NCBI GenBank assembly: GCA_000004985.1
Contig: GG738896.1
DNA: 64,000 nt
Reading direction: 5' to 3' (one strand)
DNA from: Naegleria gruberi
Lineage: Eukaryota
Shown here piece by piece: positions 6,703 to 46,111 of the stretch (within the stretch, counting starts at the first letter, position 1; every line of letters starts with the position of its first letter). A program made the translations under genes and the position numbers. Under the pieces are notes generated by a model. It had not been told where the DNA came from, searched no databases, and saw only the letters and a list, made by a program, of their open reading frames with translations.

Positions 6703-9055
6703 ATGTTATTCAGAATTACAGTTGTTAAATGTACTGATCTTCCACCCATGGATGCCAATGGACTATCCGATGGTTTTTGTGAATTGTGGGTTGTCAATTC
6801 GAAAACCAACAAATACCTCGAACCACCAAAGAATCAAAATGAAATTAAACGTACACAAATTGTCATGAAGAATTTAAATCCAGTCTTTAATGAAACTTTT
6901 GAATTTGATTTTAGTGAAAAGTTGAAGAGACGTGAAATTGATTTTGCAACAAGAGTATCAGAGGAAGATGATATTGATGATGATTATATTCTTGATGATC
7001 CGATGGATAATTTATTAATGATTAGAATTGTTGATTATGACAAATTCACAAAGAATGATGGTATGTATTGAATGATGGTTGTTATATAGTAGCTATATTG
7101 TTCATGATGTTACTACTGATGATGTTATTGATGATGACGATCAAAACTTGTGGATTGTTGTGAAATTGTTGAATATTATGATTTTATATAATTGATTGAA
7201 TAATATAATTAATTGAATATGATGATATTGAATAGTAATTGGATTTGTTCTACTTCAAGTATTCGGATTGAATTTAAAACCAAATGAAAAGCAACGTAGA
7301 ACTTTTCCAATTGTTGGTTCTGATCAGGGTTCTATTGAATTGATTATTGAATCTGTTTATGATCCAAAATCAATGCAAGGTTCTAGTTTTGCTAATTTAC
7401 CAGCTGTTTCCTCACTTTCATATGAAGCTGATGCTCCTTCAAATGTTATCATGACAGTTGGTCCAGTGATTGGTTTAGTAAAGAGTACTAGTGCTAGAAT
7501 TCTTGTGGAATGTTCGAAAGATTTGATTAATAATAATGATTCCGAGTTGGTATTGGATGTGGTTTGTTATCCAATTTGTGAAAGATCTCATTTAGAGAAG
7601 AGAGATGATTATCTCAATAAGCGTTTATTGCATCTACATATGCATGATACTCATGGTTCTTATCATGAAGCTATTCTTAAACGTTCACTTTTAACAAAAT
7701 CAAAGAGGGAAACTCTTAAAGCAACTAATATAATCAAAAAGAAGGTCATTATTCCAAATGCCAACATTCCACACACCTTTACAATTGAAGGTTTATCTCC
7801 AGATTATGTTTATAGAGTTGAATTCCCTAATGTTGTTAATACCAAGACAAGAGTTGGTATTATCAAGACAATGGTTAGTGATAATTTGGGAAATCTCAAT
7901 ACTAGATCACACCATTTGAACACGGCAGCTGTTAGTTGCAATTTAATTGAAAGACGTATTCCTGATAAGGATGTTTGGGAAAGAATGTTAGAAAAAGTTG
8001 ATGAACTTGACATTTTAATGCATTGTGGTGATCAAATTTATAGTGATTGTGGTCACAATGCATTCGATGAAGCAAAAAGAATTTGTGATGGTAGAATTAA
8101 ACTTGAAAAGGATGAGGAAAATGAAATTAAGGAACTTTTTAGAAAGTATTACAGATTAAATTGGAATCACCCTCCAACTAGAAGAATCATGTCTCAAGTT
8201 TCAAATTTAATGATCTTGGATGATCATGAAATTAGAGATGATTGGGGATCTGATGAATGTGATAAGGATAAGGGATCTGTTGAATATTATATTGGTAGAT
8301 TGGCACGTGAAGTTTATTGGGAATATCAAAGAAGTCTCAGAGAAGATGTCCTCTCAATGAATTATGAGGAAACTTTCAAGAAACATGAAGGATATTATCA
8401 TGTGTTTGGTGATTATGCAATCTTATTCTTAGATTTGAGAGCTGCTCGTTCATTCAATTCAGAATTGTCAGGAGATAAACCATTCCTAACACAACCTCAA
8501 TGGGATGATTTAAATAATTGGCTTTTCAAGGATAATAATGCCCTTGCTTCTGAGAATATAAAGGCATTGATTTGTGTCTGTTCCGTTCCATTAGTTTTCC
8601 TTAATAAGAAGATGACTGATAGTTTACCAAAGATTACTTCTAAACTTTCAGATATGAGAGACCACTGGAATTATGGACATCAATTTAATGAACAAATTGG
8701 TATTCTCAACTCAATTAATAGATGGAAGAAAGAACAGCCAAATAGAGAAGCAGTATTTGTTGCTGGTGATGTACATATTGGAGGTGTTACTGAAATTATG
8801 TATAATAATGAAATGGTATTGAAACAATTAACCACTAGTTCTGTTTCTAACAATGAATTTTCATGGTGTTTAGGATTATCAATGAGATTTATGCTCACTA
8901 AGAGTTCAGAACTCAAAGAAGGTTGGACATTTAAACATCAAAAGTGGACAAGAAAACGTAATTATGGAATTCTTAATATTGCAACAGACGGTGAAAAAGT
9001 TACACCAGTGATGAATCCTTACTTGAATACTTACATTAAATCATATAGATATTAA
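6703..9055 (+). CDS. C2-domain protein fused to a PhoD-like metallophosphatase domain, 2 exons, ~717 aa
   Basis: Exon 1 (6703-7060) encodes a C2 domain (LPPMDANGLSDGFCELWV...NLNPVFNETFEFDF...IVDYDKFTKND). The donor is GTATGT at 7061 and the 199-nt intron ends at ..cttcaag. Exon 2 (7260-9055) continues in frame (VFGLNLKP..GSIELIIE) and carries metallophosphoesterase/PhoD-like motifs (GDQIYSD; DDHEIRDDWG; GDVHIGG). The total CDS is 2154 nt, divisible by 3. Confidence 0.7.
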
Positions 9056-9117
9056 ACAATTTCAATCTTCTTCACAACAATAAAATTGTAAATATTTCAA
9101 AGTTCATCTTGTAAAAA

Positions 9118-11587
9118 ATGGGCAACAAGGCATCAACACAGGGCAGAATTGGAAGATCTAGATTGGAAATAATTGATTGGAATGATGAGGAGGGAATCAT
9201 ACCACCACCATCATCGGTTATTAAAATATGGAATAGACACGATTTATTGGAGCAAACTTTGACCGATCGAGTAGATATTGACTATTACTATAGAAAATCG
9301 TTGGATAGCAAACCTTTCAAGGTAATTATTAAATATTATTATAATTATTTAATAATAATTAAAAGGTGAATTTATTGTCTGAAGGCTACACTAAGGATCA
9401 AGTTGCCGATTTTGAAACTCATCCCCATCCATCCTATAGATCTAATAATAGGAAAATTTGTTTAAGACTTAAAGAATTGTTTAACAGGATTGAATTGGAA
9501 AATCTGATGGAACATTTGGAAAAACTCCAGTTTCATTCTTTGGAAAAGGAATATCCAAAAGAATATAGAAATTGTAAGAGAGTTTTAATTAAGAGCAAAC
9601 CAATGGCAGATGCTATTTGGAATAGAATTAAACCAATGTTGAAGGTTTCAGATTTTAAAGATTTGAGACCTTATGGATTTGACAATGAAGGATTGTGGAA
9701 ACCTATTGGAATTAATGAAGTATTAAGAATTTCAAAATATGAGGAGGGTGGATATTTCAAACCTCATATGGATGGTCAATTTGTTATCGATGATAATCGA
9801 AAGAGTATTTTAACTGTATTAATTTATTTGAGCCAAAGTTTTAGTGCAGGAACAAATTATTATCATTGTATTGAAAAGAAAGATAATTCTCTATTATTGC
9901 AACACGTACTCTCTACTAATTGCAATATTGGTGATTGTATTCTTTTTAATCATGAAATTTTTCATAGCGGAGAGCCAGTAGATTATGGTACCAAGTATGT
10001 ACTCAGAACTGAAATTATCTTCCAACGTGTAGATGAGGATAATGTTTCTCGTACTGATTATAAACTCAGTCAAGAATATCAGAATATTAAGAACCTTGTT
10101 GAGGAAAGTGATAGATTGGAAAAAGAAGGGGATATTGAAAAATCTACCAAAGTTTACCTTGAAGCTCAATATTTACAAATGAACATTTCATCAAATCTTC
10201 AATGTAGTAAGCCAAGCTTTTTGGAAAGCACACTTCCATCAGAGGTCTTATCACTAATTTTCAGCTATCTTACTCCTACAGAGGTCTGTACGAGTATTGT
10301 CTATCTGAACAGGAATTTGAATGCGAGTGCAAGAGACCAATACACTTGGAAACAAAGATACAAAGACGAATGGTGCGACATCTCAAAAAATGGGTTTGAC
10401 TATAACTCTACCATTATGAAAATGGAAGAGGATATATTTCATGACCTCACAGATTGGTTTCATTTATTTGTTTCCAGGAAAAATCTTGATAAGGAATTTT
10501 GTGCATTTATTGTTAATCCAGGTCCAAATTATTTCAGGTATGCCCTCAAGAGTGATTCAAATATGAGATTTGAGATTTCATATAGTGGAATTGGAATACA
10601 TAGCCAGTAAGTTTAAATTCAAAGATCATGACCTAACATCACATCTTTGTAAATAGTTTTTTCTTTCCTGGAAAAGGGCTTAACGATCTATTTCTTGGTG
10701 ATGCAGGAAAGCAATACCAAAGACTTTATGATCCTATTGATTTATTCATAGATCAAGAAGCAGTTGATCCTATGATTTTAGCTTGTTTTATTGAGTACAT
10801 ATTGAGAGATTCTTTGGACTTGAGTTTGAAACAATATCCAGTACTCCTAGCCAAACCATTCATGTTTTCAAGTGAGGACGAGGAGATTTTGAAAGATATT
10901 CTTGTAAGTTATTAAGTTTATATAATGAAATCTAGAATTGGATAGTTTGGAGCTGGAATACCTGCACTTCATATCGAACACTCTTACACATTGATTTCCT
11001 TATATTATGGAATGCCTAATTGTACAATAATAGATATACGCCCAGATTATGTAGGTGTTGCAGTTGTAGAAAATGGAAAACCATTACCAACATCAACATT
11101 CTTCTCACCAGACTTGACTAATTTTAAACATCATATTAAAGCTCACTATGATATGGACTGGCCAAACAAGTTCGTCCAACAAAATGCAATAGTAAGAATT
11201 GATGAAGATGATAGTTCATCAGTTCAGTATGGATTTGGAGAGTTATTTTACACAACAATTTTACCATACATTGAGGAATTTTTACAAAAATTAGAGAATG
11301 CTCCTCCAAGTACAATTATTAGAGGTGAATTATCACTTGTTCCGGGGCTTGTAACAAGATTAATTAAGGATCTTTCTGGAAAATTTGTGGAGAAAAACTT
11401 TACATTCACTCACGACCCTGAAAATTGTGTTTGGGATATTTTGAAGGGAGGTAAAATAATGTCAAATCTAAGTGATTTCAAAGAAAAATGTCAAAAGAGT
11501 GGAAACTATGAACAAGTTTGCCATCCTTCGCAATATGCTACTTTTGATCAACTTTCTCAAAAAATCAAACAATCAAATAACAAGTAA
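9118..11587 (+). CDS. Single 4-exon reading frame: N-myristoylation-type start, a P4H-like 2OG-Fe(II) oxygenase domain, an F-box, and a divergent actin-related protein (Arp) domain; ~777 aa
   Basis: Exons 9118-9321, 9366-10606, 10657-10903, 10946-11587; introns of 44, 50 and 42 nt with donors GTAATT, GTAAGT, GTAAGT. The total is 2334 nt, divisible by 3. It starts MGNKAS. The P4Hc-type motifs are HMDGQ (HxD), ..NHEIFHSGEPVDYGTKYVLRTEIIF. The F-box is LPSEVLSLIFSYLTPTEV..W. The actin-fold alignment to actin is CAFIVNPGPNYFRYALKSDSNMRFEISYSGIG ~ [43 protein letters not shown] ~ SYVGDEAQSKRGIL; PVLLAKP ~ PVLLTEAP; LVPGLVTRLIKDL ~ MYPGIADRMQKEI; ENCVWDILKGGKIMSNLSDF ~ ERKYSVWIGGSILASLSTF. There is no stop codon between the F-box and the Arp N-terminus. 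Confidence 0.55.
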
Positions 11588-11684: not shown

Positions 11685-13280
11685 ATGGATCAAGTTAATA
11701 CATGTTCAATCTTGGATTTAGATCAAGATTACCTCGATCTTATTCTGTCATTCTGTCCGAATAGAGGATGTTATGAAATTCAATCGATGAGACATGTTTG
11801 TAAGGTTTGGAATTTGTTATTGACTGGACAGGGTTCTGAAAGCTCTTCCGATATTGCTTCCCTTCATCAAAGTATATCAAAAACAATTAAGGAAGTATTG
11901 AAGAATGATAATTTTCGTGAAAGAGTTGAAAAAGTCTATTTACCTCGATTGTATTATCAAATATTTCTTGATTTCTTGCCCAGAGATGAACCATTGGACA
12001 GTTTAATGATTCCTATCATGAATGCTTTTAAAAACAAATTTGGTGATGAGGCAGTTAGAAGAATTTCTAGAGTAGAATTTGAAGTTGATTTCATGATGGA
12101 AAACCATCAAGTTCTGGAGAATGTAGAACATACAGTGGATAAGACAATAATATTATCAAATGAAAGATCCGATGAAGAATTTAAAAGTATTGAAAATCCA
12201 AACAAGTTATTCCATGTAGACTTCGAAAAGAAGAACAATCCAGAAGAATTCTTTGCCAAGTACAAACCACTGGATGAGATATTCGGAGAATGGAAAAATC
12301 GACCATTCATAGATAATGATATGCTTGTTAATCCTTACAGATTATATAGAAAAGTAATTCTTCAGTTTAAAGTTTATAGTGAGGAGTTTTTCTCTAAGGG
12401 AGTTTTAAGATTACCAAGTACAGAAATATCAATTGGGGATTCGAGTAATATTTATGAAGAAACTGATGTTGCACTTAAAAGTTGCTTAATTCGTAATTAT
12501 TCATACCAAGAAACAACAGTGTACAAGTTTAAACCTATTGATCCTAGGAAAGATATGGAAAAATTGATGGAGTATACTATTTACTACTTTTTAAAACATA
12601 GATTACTGAGAAGAATGGATAAAATTAATTTGAGTTTGAAAGAATTATTGGAAGATAGTAAGATTAATTACCTAACTCAATTAAATAGGGAGGATCAATA
12701 TTACTTTCTGACAATGAGAGAATCTATGTTGAAGAAGTGTAGAGATTCATTAATATCTGATGTTCGACATTTCAATGGTCCTATTTCAGAAAAGATAAAT
12801 GCCTCTAACGCTTGGACTACTGTTGGTCATCGAATAGAACATTACCTTTCTTTAACCTGCTTAGATACAATGAACAATTATCAAAGAGTCAACTTTCTCA
12901 AACAATTTTTCAACTTTATGTACAAGGAAAAACTCAACATTTCGGAGAAAGTGAGGAAAGAAGTTTTCAAGAAATTTGGAATTGATCATATTGGGAAATC
13001 TTTCACATTCACTGAGACACCAAACAGCCTTAATTTAACTGATATTGTAATGAGCTTTGAGAAAGAATTCGATCACGACAAGAATACCGTTTATTGTCAC
13101 GAATTCATCTTCCCTTCTTTTCCTATAATGTCCATATGTGATGTTAAAGAAACTACTCCGTTCAATACAAGCAAAAAGACAACAAACGATTACAGTTCTA
13201 GGTGCTGCTGCTCAAACCTATTTCAATGTTGCAGAGCACTTTATGGTGTAATGTTTCACCCTGACAGATTTGAAGATTAA
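11685..13280 (+). CDS. Hypothetical 531-aa protein with an F-box-like N-terminal motif and a Cys-rich C-terminus
   Basis: Single long ORF with coding-like codon usage. The N-terminus (LDLDQDYLDLILSFCPNRGCYEIQSMRHVCKVWNLLL) resembles an F-box. I recognised no other domain. Confidence 0.5.
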   Translation: MDQVNTCSILDLDQDYLDLILSFCPNRGCYEIQSMRHVCKVWNLLLTGQGSESSSDIASLHQSISKTIKEVLKNDNFRERVEKVYLPRLYYQIFLDFLPRDEPLDSLMIPIMNAFKNKFGDEAVRRISRVEFEVDFMMENHQVLENVEHTVDKTIILSNERSDEEFKSIENPNKLFHVDFEKKNNPEEFFAKYKPLDEIFGEWKNRPFIDNDMLVNPYRLYRKVILQFKVYSEEFFSKGVLRLPSTEISIGDSSNIYEETDVALKSCLIRNYSYQETTVYKFKPIDPRKDMEKLMEYTIYYFLKHRLLRRMDKINLSLKELLEDSKINYLTQLNREDQYYFLTMRESMLKKCRDSLISDVRHFNGPISEKINASNAWTTVGHRIEHYLSLTCLDTMNNYQRVNFLKQFFNFMYKEKLNISEKVRKEVFKKFGIDHIGKSFTFTETPNSLNLTDIVMSFEKEFDHDKNTVYCHEFIFPSFPIMSICDVKETTPFNTSKKTTNDYSSRCCCSNLFQCCRALYGVMFHPDRFED

Positions 13281-24291: not shown

Positions 24292-25620
24292 GATCTTTTT
24301 GAATTTCCTTATGACTATTGCAGTAAACGCCAAACTCAATTGCATTTCAGTAATTAATGGGATGAAATCATTGTGCAAAGTATGCTGTTGACCTGTTGAT
24401 AAAAAACTTGAAAGTTTTGGGAGTTTTTTCAATCTGTTGGCCAAGGTAGTGAAGAACTCTTTCATTTATGTACCTAAAATGCAAAGAAAGTTCCAAATAG
24501 ATCTGCATGTTCACATGATGAGTGCAAACATATTTTAAATGCTGCCAAAGGACATTTAAATTGTTTAAGTTTCTATTAATTATTAAAAAAATTAAGGTAC
24601 CAATCTGCATGTTCACAAATCCCCCATTCACAAACCATGGCTGGTAAGGAATGCAGCAATCATCTATGAACGAGGAAACCTACAGCGAAGCATGTTTCCA
24701 GTTCGATATCATGCTCAAGATATGTGACTACAGAGTCTTCATCTTGGTTAACCTCAAAGGTCAGATTGACTCAAAAAAGTCGAGTTTATGTATTCCTACA
24801 GAAAAGATCCTGTAGAAGTACAGTCAATGGTTTTATCAAGTTTCATTTGTGAGGTTTGTGATATTGGTTTTGAATGTGTGAAAAGTGAGGTTAAAAAATT
24901 GTGGTACTTTTATGTGAAAAATATAAATTTCGATTCAAGAAAATAATTGAATGTTGATGGCTTCAAGATCAGCTCACAATTTTTAAGAACTTCCTCCTGA
25001 AAGTTGTAAGAAACAACTAATTAAGTGAAGAATTTCCTCATTCCTTGCACAAATACTATTATAATCTGTGAAATGACAAAAAGACAGGTTCCTAATTGAG
25101 ATGAGGTGATATTGATCCTCCCTATGAACTTGTTGATCAAATGAAAATTACATTCATGAATGTTTGCTTCAAAAGTTGAAAGTGGCATTTCCTAAAATAT
25201 AAATAGAAAGAGAGCTGGCTTGAATGTGACAAAATTGTCTCTTGTTCAATTAAAAAAAAAGAAACCTCCTGCAATGAATCTTCAGTCGAGTATTTTCATA
25301 GATTCATTGAGCCCTCTTGTCCAATCAAATCGTTCTAGAAAGAGTGGCGGAGGGCTGATAATTAATGTAGAGGGAGGAAATCCCTGATTGTAACCAAGTA
25401 TTTGCAGTAATGTGAATCCACAGCAGTTAAAAGAGTCTCCTTAATAGTAAACAACAACCCGAACAATTTGGATAAGATTGAATTTACAAGTTTTTCAATA
25501 AAGTTCTTTAAATTGTCAAATGATTTGTATTTAATTTTCTTCAATGTTTGTACATTTCCATTTCAATATTCTCTACATTTCAATATTTAAAGCTGTAAAA
25601 ACAATAAGGTGAAATTAAAA

Positions 25621-25739
25621 AGACTACAGCTTCACAGGTTCCCAAGTTGTCTCCAACCTCAGTACTGATGTGGCTCGACGATGCTTAACTTCTCAAATCG
25701 GACGGGATGAGGTGCATTCATCGTGATATGGCCGTAGCC
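25621..25739 (-). rRNA. 5S ribosomal RNA gene (full length, ~119 nt) with a downstream T-run terminator
   Basis: The reverse complement reads GGCTACGGCCATATCACGATGAATGCACCTCATCCCGTCCGATTTGAGAAGTTAAGCATCGTCGAGCCACATCAGTACTGAGGTTGGAGACAACTTGGGAACCTGTGAAGCTGTAGTCT, followed by TTTTT. This carries the conserved 5S motifs (..CCCGTCCGAT.TGAGAAGTTAAGC..AGTACTG.GG.TGGGAGAC..TGGGAA..). The 5'/3' ends pair as helix I (GGCUAC/GUAGUC). Confidence 0.8.
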
Positions 25740-40237: not shown

Positions 40238-40310
40238 GCCGACATAGCTCAGTTGGGAGAGCGTAAGACTGAAGATCTTAAGGTCCCTGGTTCGATCCCT
40301 GGTGTCGGCA
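40238..40310 (+). tRNA. tRNA-Phe (anticodon GAA), 73 nt, no encoded CCA
   Basis: GCCGACA-TA-GCTC-AGTTGGGA-GAGC-G-TAAGA-CTGAAGA-TCTTA-AGGTC-CCTGG-TTCGATC-CCTGG-TGTCGGC-A. The acceptor, D and anticodon stems pair perfectly. The anticodon loop CUGAAGA gives GAA. The sequence is close to other eukaryotic tRNA-Phe, with one T-T mismatch in the T-stem. It is followed by a T5 Pol III terminator. Confidence 0.85.
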
Positions 40311-40637: not shown

Positions 40638-42248
40638 TTACCAATAGTTATTACAGCTACAAATTCCATTCTTAAAATGATGAAATCTCTTGGCATCCCT
40701 GACAATAATTTCGCAATCCATCACTTTAGAAATAAATGCTGTTGCTGAATGACAATCATTGCAAACCCTCAGGTTTGTGGTTAATAATATTTTCTTGCGA
40801 TCCTTATTCAACACAAAAGCATGAGCAATTGCTGTTTTTTCTGAATGCCTTAACAGGGCTTTAACTCTTTCGTCTTTAGTCTTAAACTCTGTATTTGGTA
40901 CCCATCTTACATCTGGCACATAACCTGCTTTGATGATTTTTCTGAAAATTTCATCTCTCATTTGCTCAACCTCATTGAATCTGTCAAAATTATCATTGCC
41001 AGATACAAATTTGTAGGTTATTCCATTTTCTTCGTGATACACAATGCCGGGCATTACCTGAATACCCTTTTCTTTCATTAGCTCTCTAATTTTATTTGCC
41101 TTTTCAACAAGTCCATAGTTCATGTAAATATGTGATAATAAATAGGCAGAAGGTTCCAATTCATCGATGGATATCATTATTTTGAATACTCTTTCTCCTA
41201 GCTCTAGGTTATTGAATTTTCTACAACCACACATTAAAGTATTCCAAAGTATATAACTATCATCATGATCAATTACACTTTCTGCCTGTTCTAACAGTCC
41301 TTTTCGTGCCAATGCATCTACCATAGCACATTTATTATGTATGGATGGATGCTTAATTGAGGAAAATACTGAATATACATGCTCTACCATTCCAGAATGA
41401 GAAAGAGCATTCAGCAGAATTGTGAAAGTTTTTTCTGTAGGTTCAATATTCTTTTCTATGAATGAAATGTAAAAATTGAATGCTTCAGATCCCTCACCAT
41501 GATGTGCGAAAACAGAAAGGATGTTATTGCATGTTTCAATTGAAAGAGCTTTTTCATATTTCAACAATTCATCAAAAATCTGTTTGGATGCTTCTAACTC
41601 TCCAATTTTTGAAAAATAAAGAGCTATCGAAGATTGTATTATTTCATTATTGTACAACCCATTATCTTGAATGTGTTTTATCACTCGGTTACCACTGTCG
41701 GTTGATACAAATCTAGAACATGCTTGTAACAAAACAAGATATGTTACAATATTGGGTTGAAAATTTTGCTTCAGCATTTCGTTAAAAACTGTAAAAGCTT
41801 CATTAGCATCACCTATCTCAATAAAAGCCTGTATCAAAGCAGTACAGGTTCCGACATTAACTAGACCTGCCTCACAAAACTCATCGTATAAATCAACTGC
41901 CACATATGGTTTACCACACTTTGTGTAAAAGTTCATGATGGATGTTGCGAGCTCAGTAGTAATATTCTCAATAACATCTGGAATCATTCGGTGAATTTCT
42001 ACTCCTTCCTCATATAATCTATTATCTGCACATCCTTTCAGTAAAATTGTAAATTTAATGTCATTTGGTGATATGTTGTTTCCTTGCATTGTTGTAAAGG
42101 TTTGAATAGCTGTTGAAATGTTTCCAGCGCTAATATATGCTTGGAGTAAACAATTCCATGAACCAATATCTACTCCTCCTGTCTTTTTCAGTTTTTCAAA
42201 CTCCTCCATCGCGAGTTCAGGATGGCCACATTTTGTGTAAAATGACAT
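40638..42248 (-). CDS. DYW-type pentatricopeptide-repeat protein (PPR + E + DYW cytidine-deaminase-like domain), a putative organellar C-to-U RNA editing factor
   Basis: The 536-aa ORF has ~10 PPR/PLS-like motifs (..FYTKCG..A..F..M...G..P...T..), an E-like region and a C-terminal DYW domain with conserved HSEKTAIAHAF and CNDCHSATAFISKVMDCEIIVRDAKRFHHFKNGICSCNNYW (the zinc-binding HxE and CxxCH are intact; the terminal NYW replaces DYW). It starts abruptly inside a PPR motif with no targeting peptide, so it is probably continuous with the upstream PPR ORF 42419..43537. Confidence 0.85.
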   Translation of the reverse strand: MSFYTKCGHPELAMEEFEKLKKTGGVDIGSWNCLLQAYISAGNISTAIQTFTTMQGNNISPNDIKFTILLKGCADNRLYEEGVEIHRMIPDVIENITTELATSIMNFYTKCGKPYVAVDLYDEFCEAGLVNVGTCTALIQAFIEIGDANEAFTVFNEMLKQNFQPNIVTYLVLLQACSRFVSTDSGNRVIKHIQDNGLYNNEIIQSSIALYFSKIGELEASKQIFDELLKYEKALSIETCNNILSVFAHHGEGSEAFNFYISFIEKNIEPTEKTFTILLNALSHSGMVEHVYSVFSSIKHPSIHNKCAMVDALARKGLLEQAESVIDHDDSYILWNTLMCGCRKFNNLELGERVFKIMISIDELEPSAYLLSHIYMNYGLVEKANKIRELMKEKGIQVMPGIVYHEENGITYKFVSGNDNFDRFNEVEQMRDEIFRKIIKAGYVPDVRWVPNTEFKTKDERVKALLRHSEKTAIAHAFVLNKDRKKILLTTNLRVCNDCHSATAFISKVMDCEIIVRDAKRFHHFKNGICSCNNYW

Positions 42249-42418: not shown

Positions 42419-43537
42419 CTACAAAAAGGCCCTTATGGTTTTAAGCGAAATGGAAAAAAGAACTGGCTTACCACCTGACAGTACTACATACGGTTTATTA
42501 CTTGGAGCTCTTGGAGAAAACAACTTATACTTATATGGAATAGAGCTTGTTAAATGTATTCCTTTATTGAATATTCCACAATCTGGTTTGATCCCAGTCT
42601 CTATCATTTCATATAAACTCTCTATAGCTTTCTTCATATTATTCATTTCTATAAAAGATTGAATTAAACATGTCCAAGAAATTACATCCATTTTTCCATG
42701 TTTTTGTAATTTCATGCACTCCTCATTCGCCAAAGAGTGGTTTCCACATTTGGAAAAGAATGAAATTAGACTTGAAGACAGTTGCAAACTCTCAACTTTT
42801 GATTTCTGGATTATTTCGTATAACTTCATTCCTACACAAACATTATTGCATCTAGTTGCTTCTTTTAGAATGGGAATGTAAACTCCAAAATTAGGTTCAA
42901 TTCCATTTTGTTGCATTTTGAGTATAGCACTAATTGTTTCATTTAATTGACCGTTCTTGATCATACTCGAAATCAGAGATATAAACGAATAGACTGTACA
43001 TTGTCCTTTCTCAATTAAAATATCAACAACTAGTTCACATGATGAGGTATCTCCAATTTTGGAGTAATACTGTAAAATTGCATTGTAAGTAAAGTAGTTT
43101 GGAGCAGCCAAATTCTTGTTTACAATTCTTTCGAATAACCTTACTCCTTGTTTTTCATAATTTGGATGACTAAGTAAATGTTGAATGGCAAAATTCCAAG
43201 ACTTTTCTTTAAGTTTTAGTTCATCATCTTGGTTTAGGCAATCAAACAAGTTTGACAAATCAAGTAAACACTCTTCTAGCTCCTTTTTTTGATTTCCCGA
43301 CACTTTGCACTTGTGAGTCATTGCCAAACATATTTCTATCATGTTGGTTGGTAATAAGTCTTTCTGTTGTTTTGATTTTCGGTAGATTGTAAATAAATTA
43401 TCAAACGAAGCCCCATAGCCCACTAATTCTCGGAAGGTGCTGCTGTTGGTAGTGGTAGAATAATATTTCTTTCCTAAATTCTCAAGAAAGGCTTTCATAG
43501 ATGTGCAAGTCTTCCCTTTGAAAAGTTGTGATATCAT
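42419..43537 (-). CDS. PPR protein with a presequence-like N-terminus; probably the 5' portion of the DYW-PPR gene
   Basis: 372-aa ORF. It starts MISQLFKGKTCTSMKAFLENLGKKYYSTTTNSS (basic/hydroxylated, mito-presequence-like) and carries ~8 P-type PPR motifs (..TYNAILQYYSKIGDTSSCELV..; ..VYIPILKEATRCNNVCVGMKLYEII..; ..MKKAIESLYEMIETGIKPDCGIFNKGIH). The last ~40 aa are non-PPR junk, so the real exon probably ends near 42535. Confidence 0.7.
   Translation of the reverse strand: MISQLFKGKTCTSMKAFLENLGKKYYSTTTNSSTFRELVGYGASFDNLFTIYRKSKQQKDLLPTNMIEICLAMTHKCKVSGNQKKELEECLLDLSNLFDCLNQDDELKLKEKSWNFAIQHLLSHPNYEKQGVRLFERIVNKNLAAPNYFTYNAILQYYSKIGDTSSCELVVDILIEKGQCTVYSFISLISSMIKNGQLNETISAILKMQQNGIEPNFGVYIPILKEATRCNNVCVGMKLYEIIQKSKVESLQLSSSLISFFSKCGNHSLANEECMKLQKHGKMDVISWTCLIQSFIEMNNMKKAIESLYEMIETGIKPDCGIFNKGIHLTSSIPYKYKLFSPRAPSNKPYVVLSGGKPVLFSISLKTIRAFL
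42435..42550 (+). pseudogene. Antisense PPR-like gene fragment (~1.3 PPR motifs) lying between the two minus-strand PPR ORFs
   Basis: The plus-strand reading MVLSEMEKRTGLPPDSTTYGLLLGALGENNLYLYGIELVKCI fits the PPR consensus (..M...G..PD..TY..LL.A..). The same DNA read on the minus strand gives non-PPR sequence. Confidence 0.3.
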
Positions 43538-43987: not shown

Positions 43988-46111
43988 ATGGCCCAAGTTG
44001 AAACTTACAAATTCCAAGCCGAAATCAATCAATTGATGAGCTTGATTATTAATACATTCTACAGCAATAAGGAAGTCTTTTTGAGAGAGTTGATTTCCAA
44101 TGCTTCAGATGCTTTGGATAAGATTCGTTATATGAGTTTGACTGAACCTTCAGTTTTGGATACTGAAAAGGAATTGTGCATTCATTTAATTCCTGATAAG
44201 GTAAACAAGACATTGACAATTAGAGATACAGGTTGTGGTATGGCCAAGCACGATTTAATTAATTGCTTGGGAACTGTTGCAAGATCTGGAACTAAACAAT
44301 TTATGGAAATGCTTCAAGCTGGTGCTGATGTTTCCTTAATTGGTCAATTTGGTGTTGGTTTCTATTCTGCTTACCTTGTTGCTGATCGAGTTGTTGTCAC
44401 AACTAAACACAATGATGATGAACAATACATTTGGGAATCATCTGCTGGTGGCAGTTTTACAATTACTTTGGATGAAAGTGGTGAAAAATTGTCACGTGGA
44501 ACCAAGATTGTTCTTCACATGAAAGACGATCAATTAGAATATTTGGAAGAAAGAAAGTTGAAGGATTTGGTAAAGAAGCACTCTGAATTTATTGGTTATC
44601 CAATCTCTTTACAAGTTGAAAAGACTGAAGAGAAGGAAGTTGATGAAGATGACTCCATGTCAGATGATGAAAAGAAGGACGAAGACAAGAAGGAAGATGG
44701 TCCAAAGATTGAAGAAGTCAAGGAAGTAGATGACAAGAAAAAGAAGAAGGTTAAAGAAGTCAAGAAAGAGCTCGAATTGTTGAATAAGAACAAGCCATTG
44801 TGGACTCGTGATCCAAAGACTGTCACTAAGGAAGAATATTCCAGTTTCTACAAGGCATTGACAAATGATTGGGAAGAACATTTGGCTGTCAAGCACTTTT
44901 CAGTTGAAGGCAACTTTGAATTCAAGAGTTTGTTGTTCACACCCAAGAGAGCTCCATTCGATCTATTCGAACCAAAGAAGAAACTCAACAATATCAAACT
45001 CTATGTTAGAAAGGTCTTTATTATGGATAATTGTGAAGAGTTGATTCCAGAATATTTGAATTTTGTGAAGGGTATTGTTGACTCTGAAGATTTGCCATTG
45101 AATATTTCCCGTGAACACTTGCAACAAAACAAGATTATGAAAGTTATTAGAAAGAATTTAGTCAAGAAGTGTATTGAAATGTTCACTGAACTTGCTGAGA
45201 ATAAGGAAGATTTCAAGACTTTCTATGAAGCATTTGGAAAGAATTTGAAATTGGGTATTCATGAAGATTCTCAAAATAGACAAAAGTTGGCCGAGTTATT
45301 GAGATTCCACTCCTCTCAAACTAAAGGTGAAGATTGGACCAGCCTCAAGGAATATATTGAACGTATGAAGGAAGGTCAAGAATTTATCTATTACATTACT
45401 GGTGAAAGCAGAAAGGCAGTTGCTAGCTCACCATTCATTGAAAAGTGCACCAAGAAGGGAGTTGAAGTCTTGTACATGACTGATCCAATTGATGAATACA
45501 TGGTTCAACAATTGAAAGAATTCGAAGGCAAGAAATTAGTGTGTGTAACAAAGGAAGGATTGAAATTGCCAGAAACTGAAGAAGAAAAGAAGAAGAAGGA
45601 AGAATTGAAGGCCTCATTCGAAGCATTGTGCAAGTTGATGAAGGATATTTTGGGAGATAGAGTTGAAAAGGTTGTTGTTTCTGATAGACTTGGTGATTCT
45701 CCATGTTGTTTGGTTACTGGTGAATATGGTTGGAGTGCAAATATGGAAAGAATCATGAAAGCTCAAGCTTTGAAGGACAATTCTATGGCCTCCTACATGG
45801 TTTCAAAGAAAACAATGGAAATTAATCCAGAAAATTCTATTGTCAATGAATTGAGAAAGAAGGCTGAAGCTAATAAGGCTGACAAGACTGTCAGAGATTT
45901 GGTTTGGTTGTTATTCGAAACTGCCTTATTGACTTCTGGTTTCAGTATGGAAGAACCTCATACTTATGCTTCCAGAATTCACAGAATGATCAAACTTGGT
46001 TTGAGTATTGATGAAGAAGATCTTGCCTCTGAAAAGACTGAAACAACAAGCCAAGAAAATAAGGTTGAAGAAAGTCCAGCTGCTGAATCCTTAATGGAAG
46101 ATGTTGATTAA
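43988..46111 (+). CDS. HSP90: Cytosolic heat-shock protein 90 (HSP90), intronless, 707 aa
   Basis: Full-length alignment-quality match to HSP90 ([22 protein letters not shown]; [39 protein letters not shown]; a charged linker; [18 protein letters not shown]). The C-terminus is ..MEDVD, a variant of the MEEVD TPR-binding motif. Codon usage is biased toward highly expressed codons (GGT/GCT/TTG/AGA/AAG). Confidence 0.95.

Follow-up and report, generated by a model that had tools for sequence, protein, structure and literature searches.

F-box proteins that carry an oxygenase of their own are already known, namely KDM2A and KDM2B (FBXL11 and FBXL10) of animals and JcdI of Dictyostelium. In the KDM2 proteins an N-terminal Fe(II)/2-oxoglutarate (2OG) oxygenase of the JmjC type is followed by an F-box and then by a C-terminal interaction domain of leucine-rich repeats (LRR). 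Dictyostelium JcdI, also named Fbxo13, combines an F-box with a JmjC domain; it is a Skp1-binding, O2-dependent non-haem dioxygenase whose conservation extends across protists, and its F-box has been proposed to govern the enzyme's own stability (PMC9485057). Here we describe a locus in a 64,000-nucleotide (nt) stretch of Naegleria gruberi DNA (GenBank assembly GCA_000004985.1, contig GG738896.1; this whole stretch is called the window below), whose positions 9118–11587 encode a predicted protein that joins a prolyl 4-hydroxylase (P4H)-type 2OG oxygenase, an F-box and an actin-fold domain. Judged from its sequence and those of its homologues, the locus is one intact, predicted four-exon gene of an old and widespread family with a fixed domain order.

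The order of the parts is that of KDM2A and KDM2B, whose F-boxes are also among the best matches in the Protein Data Bank (PDB) to a profile of the family's F-boxes, but the parts themselves differ, the enzyme being a P4H-type double-stranded beta-helix instead of a JmjC domain and the C-terminal domain an actin fold instead of LRR. JcdI resembles the family in being a protist F-box protein that is itself a dioxygenase, and differs from it in having a JmjC rather than a P4H fold, in an F-box that lies N-terminal to the enzyme domain, and in the absence of an actin-fold domain. PBCV-1 vCPH, the Chlamydomonas P4H, OGFOD1/Tpa1 and PHD2/PhyA show marginal sequence similarity to the oxygenase; none of them has an F-box or an actin fold, and the N-terminal segment EYPKEYRNxxRVL is found only in the family. 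With actin and the actin-related proteins (Arps; Arp1–11 and the orphan Arps) the family has the four-subdomain actin fold in common, although here the fold is fused to other domains, carries an H-P-H motif at the position of the D-loop and has no clear place in any numbered Arp class. The N. gruberi copy differs further from actin in that its nucleotide motifs are lost and part of subdomain 4 is deleted.

No F-box protein with either a P4H-type enzyme or an actin-fold receptor is known to us, and literature searches, the coverage of which was incomplete, returned neither such a protein nor a paper describing the oxygenase–F-box–actin architecture. The Dictyostelium actinome paper makes no mention of such a protein, and the family goes unmentioned in the main text and one supplement of the JcdI paper (PMC9485057). 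Public databases already contain its members, under the labels 'hypothetical', 'F-box domain-containing' or 'Fe2OG dioxygenase domain-containing' protein. An earlier note on this DNA, made from the letters alone, had proposed a new architecture associated with the SCF (Skp1–Cul1–Rbx1) ubiquitin ligase; the novelty stands in that no describing paper was found, but other genomes have the architecture too, and it is visible in databases. With this family, both the Arps and the SCF receptors would gain a new class.

The gene and its three domains

The spliced coding sequence is 2334 nt long and consists of 777 codons and TAA, and all three introns have GT..AG ends (Table 1). Exon 2 is a single open reading frame (ORF; 9366–10610) in which the oxygenase and the F-box are followed by the first ∼35 residues of the actin-like part. 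Its coding frame has no stop in 413 codons, compared to 18 and 54 stops in the other two frames, and from base composition the chance expectation for exon 2 staying open is ∼3e-15. Ungapped alignment to homologues across all three splice junctions confirms them. At the first, the conserved VNLLS opens exon 2; at the second, the codon of H482 is split as CA|T, and splicing rebuilds an H-x-H motif that reads HSH here and HPH in most homologues; downstream of the third, FGAGIPAL aligns to FSLGIPGI of the homologues. A tblastn search with the product maps to the 9118–11587 locus only, with no second copy of the gene within the 64-kb window. The product begins with MGNKAS (9118–9138), a start that differs from those of the aligned homologues, and which we take to match the consensus for N-myristoylation (Gly2, Ser6).

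Table 1. Positions in the window of the fusion gene and its parts
Feature	Positions	Strand	Residues and details
Whole gene	9118–11587	+	ATG 9118 to TAA 11585–11587; 4 exons; 777-amino-acid (aa) product
Exon 1	9118–9321	+	Residues 1–68; N-terminal region; IKIWNRHDLL aligned to KFWRRxDxL of homologues
Intron 1	9322–9365	+	44 nt, GTAATT..AAAAG
Exon 2	9366–10606	+	Residues 69–482, final codon split; oxygenase, helical hairpin, F-box, linker, start of actin fold
P4H-type 2OG/Fe(II) oxygenase	9450–10034	+	Residues 97–291; HxD 9765–9773 (H202, D204), H268 9963–9965, K278 9993–9995, R282
Helical hairpin between oxygenase and F-box	10035–10214	+	Residues 292–351; two long helices, YLxAxxLQ motif
F-box	10215–10373	+	Residues 352–404; LPSEVLSLIFSYL...TWKQRY; Pfam and family profile
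Linker, F-box to actin fold	10374–10499	+	Residues 405–446; MKMEED ATG 10416, DW(Y/F)H motif 10452
Actin-fold (Arp-like) domain	10500–11584	+	Residues 447–777, exons 2–4; degenerate nucleotide motifs, subdomain 4 shortened
Intron 2	10607–10656	+	50 nt, GTAAGT..AATAG, phase 2
Exon 3	10657–10903	+	Residues 482–564
Intron 3	10904–10945	+	42 nt, GTAAGT..GATAG
Exon 4	10946–11587	+	Residues 565–777 plus stop

The N-terminal enzyme domain of the product is matched by Pfam 2OG-FeII_Oxy_3 at 27.5 bits against a cutoff of 27 (residues 189–281). The iron triad (H202-x-D204 and H268), the 2OG-binding K278 at His+10 and R282 are all present, and none of 62 long representatives of the family departs from the catalytic H, D, H and K. 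By sequence, the family profile reaches solved P4Hs only marginally (E 0.006–0.03). By fold, the domain is a double-stranded beta-helix closest to protein prolyl hydroxylases, the figures for the oxygenase being 13.9 for OGFOD1, 13.9 for the Pseudomonas P4H, 13.6 for the Trichoplax prolyl hydroxylase (PHD), 13.1 for Dictyostelium PhyA and 12.9 for the Chlamydomonas P4H. Neither a specific affinity for PhyA or PHD2 nor an arginine as ligand of the 2OG C5-carboxylate, the marks looked for in the PhyA/HIF-PHD (EGLN) subfamily, was found in this domain, and it is not a catalytic domain of the JmjC type (the class of KDM2A/B and JcdI). In an AlphaFold model of exon 2 the oxygenase has a predicted local distance difference test (pLDDT) score of ∼80–93, and the hairpin that follows it consists of two long helices (pLDDT ∼85–92) with a YLxAxxLQ motif conserved among homologues. 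By these sequence and fold measures the N. gruberi copy is a P4H-type 2OG oxygenase with predicted activity.

The F-box, with LPSEVLSLIFSYL at 10233 within the exon 2 ORF, is matched by Pfam F-box-like above its cutoff (25.7 bits against 24.3, residues 357–400). A family F-box profile built from 25 sequences and searched against the PDB matches FBXL5 (2e-13), KDM2B (1.4e-12), KDM2A (5e-12) and FBXL2 (2e-11), as well as Skp2 (1.2e-10 for the construct 1fs1, ∼3e-9 for longer chains), and the F-boxes of FBXW7 and Cdc4 are matched likewise. The tryptophan of the F-box is invariant or nearly so among the 62 sequences. The linker that follows is also conserved: in the five closest sequences W432 of its DW(Y/F)H motif never varies, and across the 62 it hardly does. 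The F-box is thus canonical, matching as it does F-boxes solved in complex with Skp1, and is predicted to bind Skp1. The same profile finds no other F-box of this kind in the window.

The C-terminal domain required a comparison at the level of the family, as Pfam Actin (PF00022) reaches only 17 bits in the N. gruberi copy (residues 526–616), below its cutoff of 27. The domain begins with AFIVNPG at 10503, and the best single-sequence match in a phmmer search of the PDB is Arp4 at 2.7e-5. A C-terminal profile of five sequences, composed of the product and four homologues, matches PDB actin almost from end to end, at 7.5e-18 over actin residues ∼5–329 and up to 367. Of the 62 family representatives, 36 pass the Pfam threshold; the best E is 9e-36, and scores reach up to 124 bits. 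On the structural side, the AlphaFold model of the Naegleria lovaniensis paralogue P0007 has a mean pLDDT of 71, with much of the actin-fold domain at ∼75–95, and its C-terminal domain matches actin structures with a Foldseek E of 2e-16 and a target-normalised template modelling (TM) score of 0.75. This structural match rests on the paralogue, since the N. gruberi copy was modeled as exon 2 only, and in alignment that copy is colinear with its paralogues over the actin-fold domain. By profile and by paralogue model, then, the C-terminal domain of the N. gruberi product is predicted to be an actin fold. The family profile and the P0007 structure are closest to conventional actin while the single-sequence match is to Arp4.

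Within this fold the N. gruberi copy is the most degenerate of the family. Compared with beta-actin, its phosphate-1 motif reads VNPGP in place of DNGSG and its phosphate-2 motif DIRPD in place of DSGDG, and ∼55 residues of subdomain 4 are missing. The set of nucleotide-binding motifs DxGxG, DxGxG and GG is thus not found in this copy, whereas D.G, the GG loop and H-P-H are kept by most family members. The H-P-H motif (HSH in this copy, 10599–10657) is specific to the family and lies at the position of the actin D-loop. None of the five closest sequences lacks its flanking histidines, and the wider family mostly has them as well, the second without exception. A role as a metal site or as a target of hydroxylation is conceivable.

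Most of what the earlier note had read from the letters is borne out by these results. Its model of four exons with GT..AG junctions and a length divisible by three was reproduced exactly, the F-box and the actin N-terminus do lie in one uninterrupted ORF, and both the P4Hc-type oxygenase with HxD...H and the canonical F-box that it named were recovered. It had called the actin fold 'unmistakable', and here the homology is firm by way of the five-sequence profile and the TM score of the paralogue, while from the Pfam score alone the word would be an overstatement.

A family with a fixed domain order

An initial homology search returned four proteins of 674–922 aa, from Naegleria lovaniensis, Willaertia magna and a Joint Genome Institute (JGI) contig, which jointly carry all three Pfam families and whose best identity to the N. 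gruberi copy is 31–35%. With HMMER the family grows to 473 cluster representatives at E<=1e-30. A Pfam scan was confined to the 62 long members, and found the oxygenase in 62/62, F-box-like in 49/62 and Actin in 36/62. A search with a profile of these 62 sequences, in which the 8000 candidates sharing the most words were scored, has 15 proteins among the matches listed. The order oxygenase, F-box, actin is found in fifteen named homologues and in 36/62 long representatives, and Naegleria and Willaertia are among the genera that have it. It was established individually for nine proteins, from Dictyostelium cf. discoideum, Tieghemostelium, Cavenderia, Physarum (two proteins), the chytrids Nowakowskiella and Rhizophlyctis, the centrohelid Pterocystis, and Arcella. 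In a Dracoamoeba protein the oxygenase is followed by the actin domain, with no F-box found at E<=0.01.

Several members come from transcriptome assemblies, so all of the domains are encoded by one transcript there: the fusion is present in de novo transcriptome contigs (Physarum transcripts, Trinity/MMETSP) of Physarum, Arcella and Pterocystis. In addition, the homologue P0004 is an uninterrupted ORF that fills an intronless metagenome contig of 2032 bp. The conservation of the fusion across heteroloboseans, many amoebozoans, chytrids and a centrohelid argues for an old, selected function over a chance fusion. The single protein with a P4H-like oxygenase, an F-box and an actin module, which the earlier note had put forward together with a search of related genomes for the same domain order, is met again in Discoba, Amoebozoa, chytrids and a centrohelid, in part as single transcripts.

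In a few representatives the oxygenase, hairpin and F-box are instead paired with ankyrin repeats, a rhodanese domain, FYVE, Macro, NADAR or a RanBP zinc finger. This suggests, at the level of sequence, that the C-terminal or N-terminal partner of the oxygenase–hairpin–F-box module can be swapped.

Proposed function and competing explanations

The explanation that we favor, and hold to be moderately probable as a whole, is that the family consists of previously undescribed SCF-associated hydroxylases in which the actin-fold domain serves as a binding module. The F-box would dock the protein on Skp1 and thereby make it a member of an SCF ubiquitin ligase. The C-terminal actin-fold domain stands where other receptors have their WD40 or LRR domain and is probably a protein-binding module, whose partner might be actin, an actin-binding protein or another protein; it is probably neither an ATPase nor a polymer subunit, and nucleotide binding by the N. 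gruberi copy is improbable. Through the N-terminal oxygenase, the same complex would gain O2- and 2OG-dependent hydroxylation of protein, with proline as the likeliest residue. Hydroxylation could act on the bound client, which would make the complex a hydroxylase-coupled E3, or the F-box could mainly couple the enzyme's own stability to SCF; the target could be a recruited client, an SCF component or the protein itself. JcdI is a published example of a dioxygenase and F-box protein in one (PMC9485057).

The locus might not be one working gene, and we weighed two ways in which this could be so. Two genes might have been read as one, an oxygenase–F-box gene and a stand-alone Arp beginning at an internal methionine. 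The ATG of MKMEED, for which the earlier note had suggested a position of ∼10411, is indeed present at 10416, in frame and 30 codons ahead of the actin N-terminus, and intergenic spacers in this region are very short, as in the 62 nt upstream of the fusion gene. However, no stop separates the F-box from the Arp-like part, the linker tryptophan between them is conserved, and the same fusion recurs in more than 36 representatives from Discoba, Amoebozoa, chytrids and a centrohelid, both in transcriptome contigs and in the intronless contig, so that the misreading, which the earlier note had kept as its alternative, is effectively excluded and has in our estimate almost no probability left. An additional internal transcript start or promoter may exist, in which case the fused product would remain the conserved entity. 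The second possibility is decay: the locus could be a paralogue losing or without function, an expressed or silent relic of a multigene family, whose frame is still unbroken. Several observations count against the reading as a functional SCF-associated hydroxylase at this point. In a neighbor-joining tree the N. gruberi copy falls inside the Naegleria/Willaertia clade on a long branch, and neither N. lovaniensis nor N. fowleri has a 1:1 orthologue of it. The homology-search matches returned did not include an N. gruberi protein model for the locus, although the same collection holds other N. gruberi proteins, among them the paralogues P0160 and P0162 from other loci; the locus therefore seems to lack a public protein model. 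The YLND..GG motif of the family oxygenase is altered or lost, the adenosine motif of the actin domain reads RGE where beta-actin has GGT, so that the GG loop is gone, and the F-box region of the exon 2 model has a pLDDT of only ∼50–60. The long branch, the lost YLND..GG and the lost GG loop mean that this copy may work unlike the family norm or may be decaying, and its nucleotide motifs, the most degenerate in the family, the ∼55-residue deletion of subdomain 4 and the missing protein model fit with decay as well. Against decay, the 2334-nt frame is intact over four exons with three canonical introns, exon 2 alone would hardly have remained open by chance (∼3e-15), and this copy keeps its catalytic H/D/H/K as well as the linker tryptophan and the core of the F-box. 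We therefore consider decay of this copy unlikely, with only a small share of the probability.

The remaining alternatives accept the gene and assign its parts different roles. The enzyme could be the business end of the protein, with SCF only regulating it: the actin-fold domain would recruit the substrate of the hydroxylase (e.g. actin or an actin-binding protein), and the F-box would place the enzyme under SCF control, possibly by self-degradation, while no client is ubiquitylated. This agrees with JcdI, where the dioxygenase-dependent phenotypes are F-box-independent and Skp1 association tracked lower JcdI levels (PMC9485057), with a conservation of the catalytic residues stricter than that of any other part of the family, the actin-fold domain included, and with a report of actin prolyl hydroxylation by a PHD (PMC4161513), the non-HIF substrates of PHDs being disputed (PMC6739866). 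An F-box ahead of a large C-terminal domain is, on the other hand, the classic layout of a substrate receptor, and the F-box and linker have been conserved over very long evolutionary distances. An enzyme only regulated by SCF is possible but in our judgment rather unlikely, and it overlaps with the SCF-associated hydroxylase that we favor. The P4H-like domain might, alternatively, hydroxylate the Skp1 docked on the adjacent F-box and so act as a Skp1 prolyl hydroxylase in cis. A P4H-type fold and an F-box do lie on one chain, and a prolyl hydroxylase is known to act on Skp1 in Dictyostelium and Toxoplasma (PMC9485057, PMC11570480). The oxygenase is, however, at least as near to other P4Hs as to PhyA, and the family and PhyA coexist in Dictyostelium. 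Its His-x9-Lys arrangement is one that we take to be of the collagen-P4H type. For these three reasons we do not favor hydroxylation of Skp1 in cis and rate it as improbable; the link to Skp1 hydroxylation that the earlier note had drawn gains no specific support here.

Returning to the SCF-associated hydroxylase, the reported hydroxylation of actin by PHD3 (PMC4161513), though disputed (PMC6739866), makes an actin-related client plausible, as a lead only. More speculatively, and in our view doubtfully, the family could represent an ancient O2- and 2OG-sensing SCF ligase with an actin-fold receptor for actin or actin-binding proteins, possibly dating from the last common eukaryotic ancestor. 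If true, a single polypeptide would couple the prolyl hydroxylation of cytoskeletal clients to their ubiquitylation, and amoeboid cells would have a direct link from O2 and metabolism to the turnover of the actin cytoskeleton, independent of PhyA–Skp1 glycosylation. Since members occur in Dictyostelium cf. discoideum and, twice, in Physarum, the question can be tested in tractable amoebae with a developed Skp1 and oxygen biology.

Surroundings of the gene in the window

The upstream neighbor (7268–9055, + strand) is a PhoD-like phosphatase gene, whose stop is separated by 62 nt (9056–9117) from the ATG of the fusion gene. Downstream, an ORF starts 97 nt past the fusion-gene stop, in keeping with the very short local spacers. 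This ORF (11685–13280, + strand, 531 aa) begins with LDLDQDYLDLILSFC...VCKVWNLLL and was considered as a possible F-box protein, but has no Pfam hit and no match to the family F-box profile.

Plant-type RNA-editing factors combine an E motif with a DYW deaminase. In the window, a pentatricopeptide repeat (PPR) protein with an E motif and a C-terminal DYW deaminase is encoded next to a second PPR gene (40641–42248 and 42422–43537, both − strand). A complete HSP90 gene (43988–46111, + strand) is 100% identical over its full length to an N. gruberi predicted protein, which identifies N. gruberi as the source of the window; an unannotated heterolobosean, considered on account of the best identity of only 31–35% for the fusion protein, is thereby ruled out. 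The RNA genes, all situated among protein-coding genes, are a U3 small nucleolar RNA (24599–24827, − strand, 76 bits), a 5S rRNA (25621–25739, − strand, 97 bits) and a tRNA-Phe(GAA) (40238–40310, + strand).

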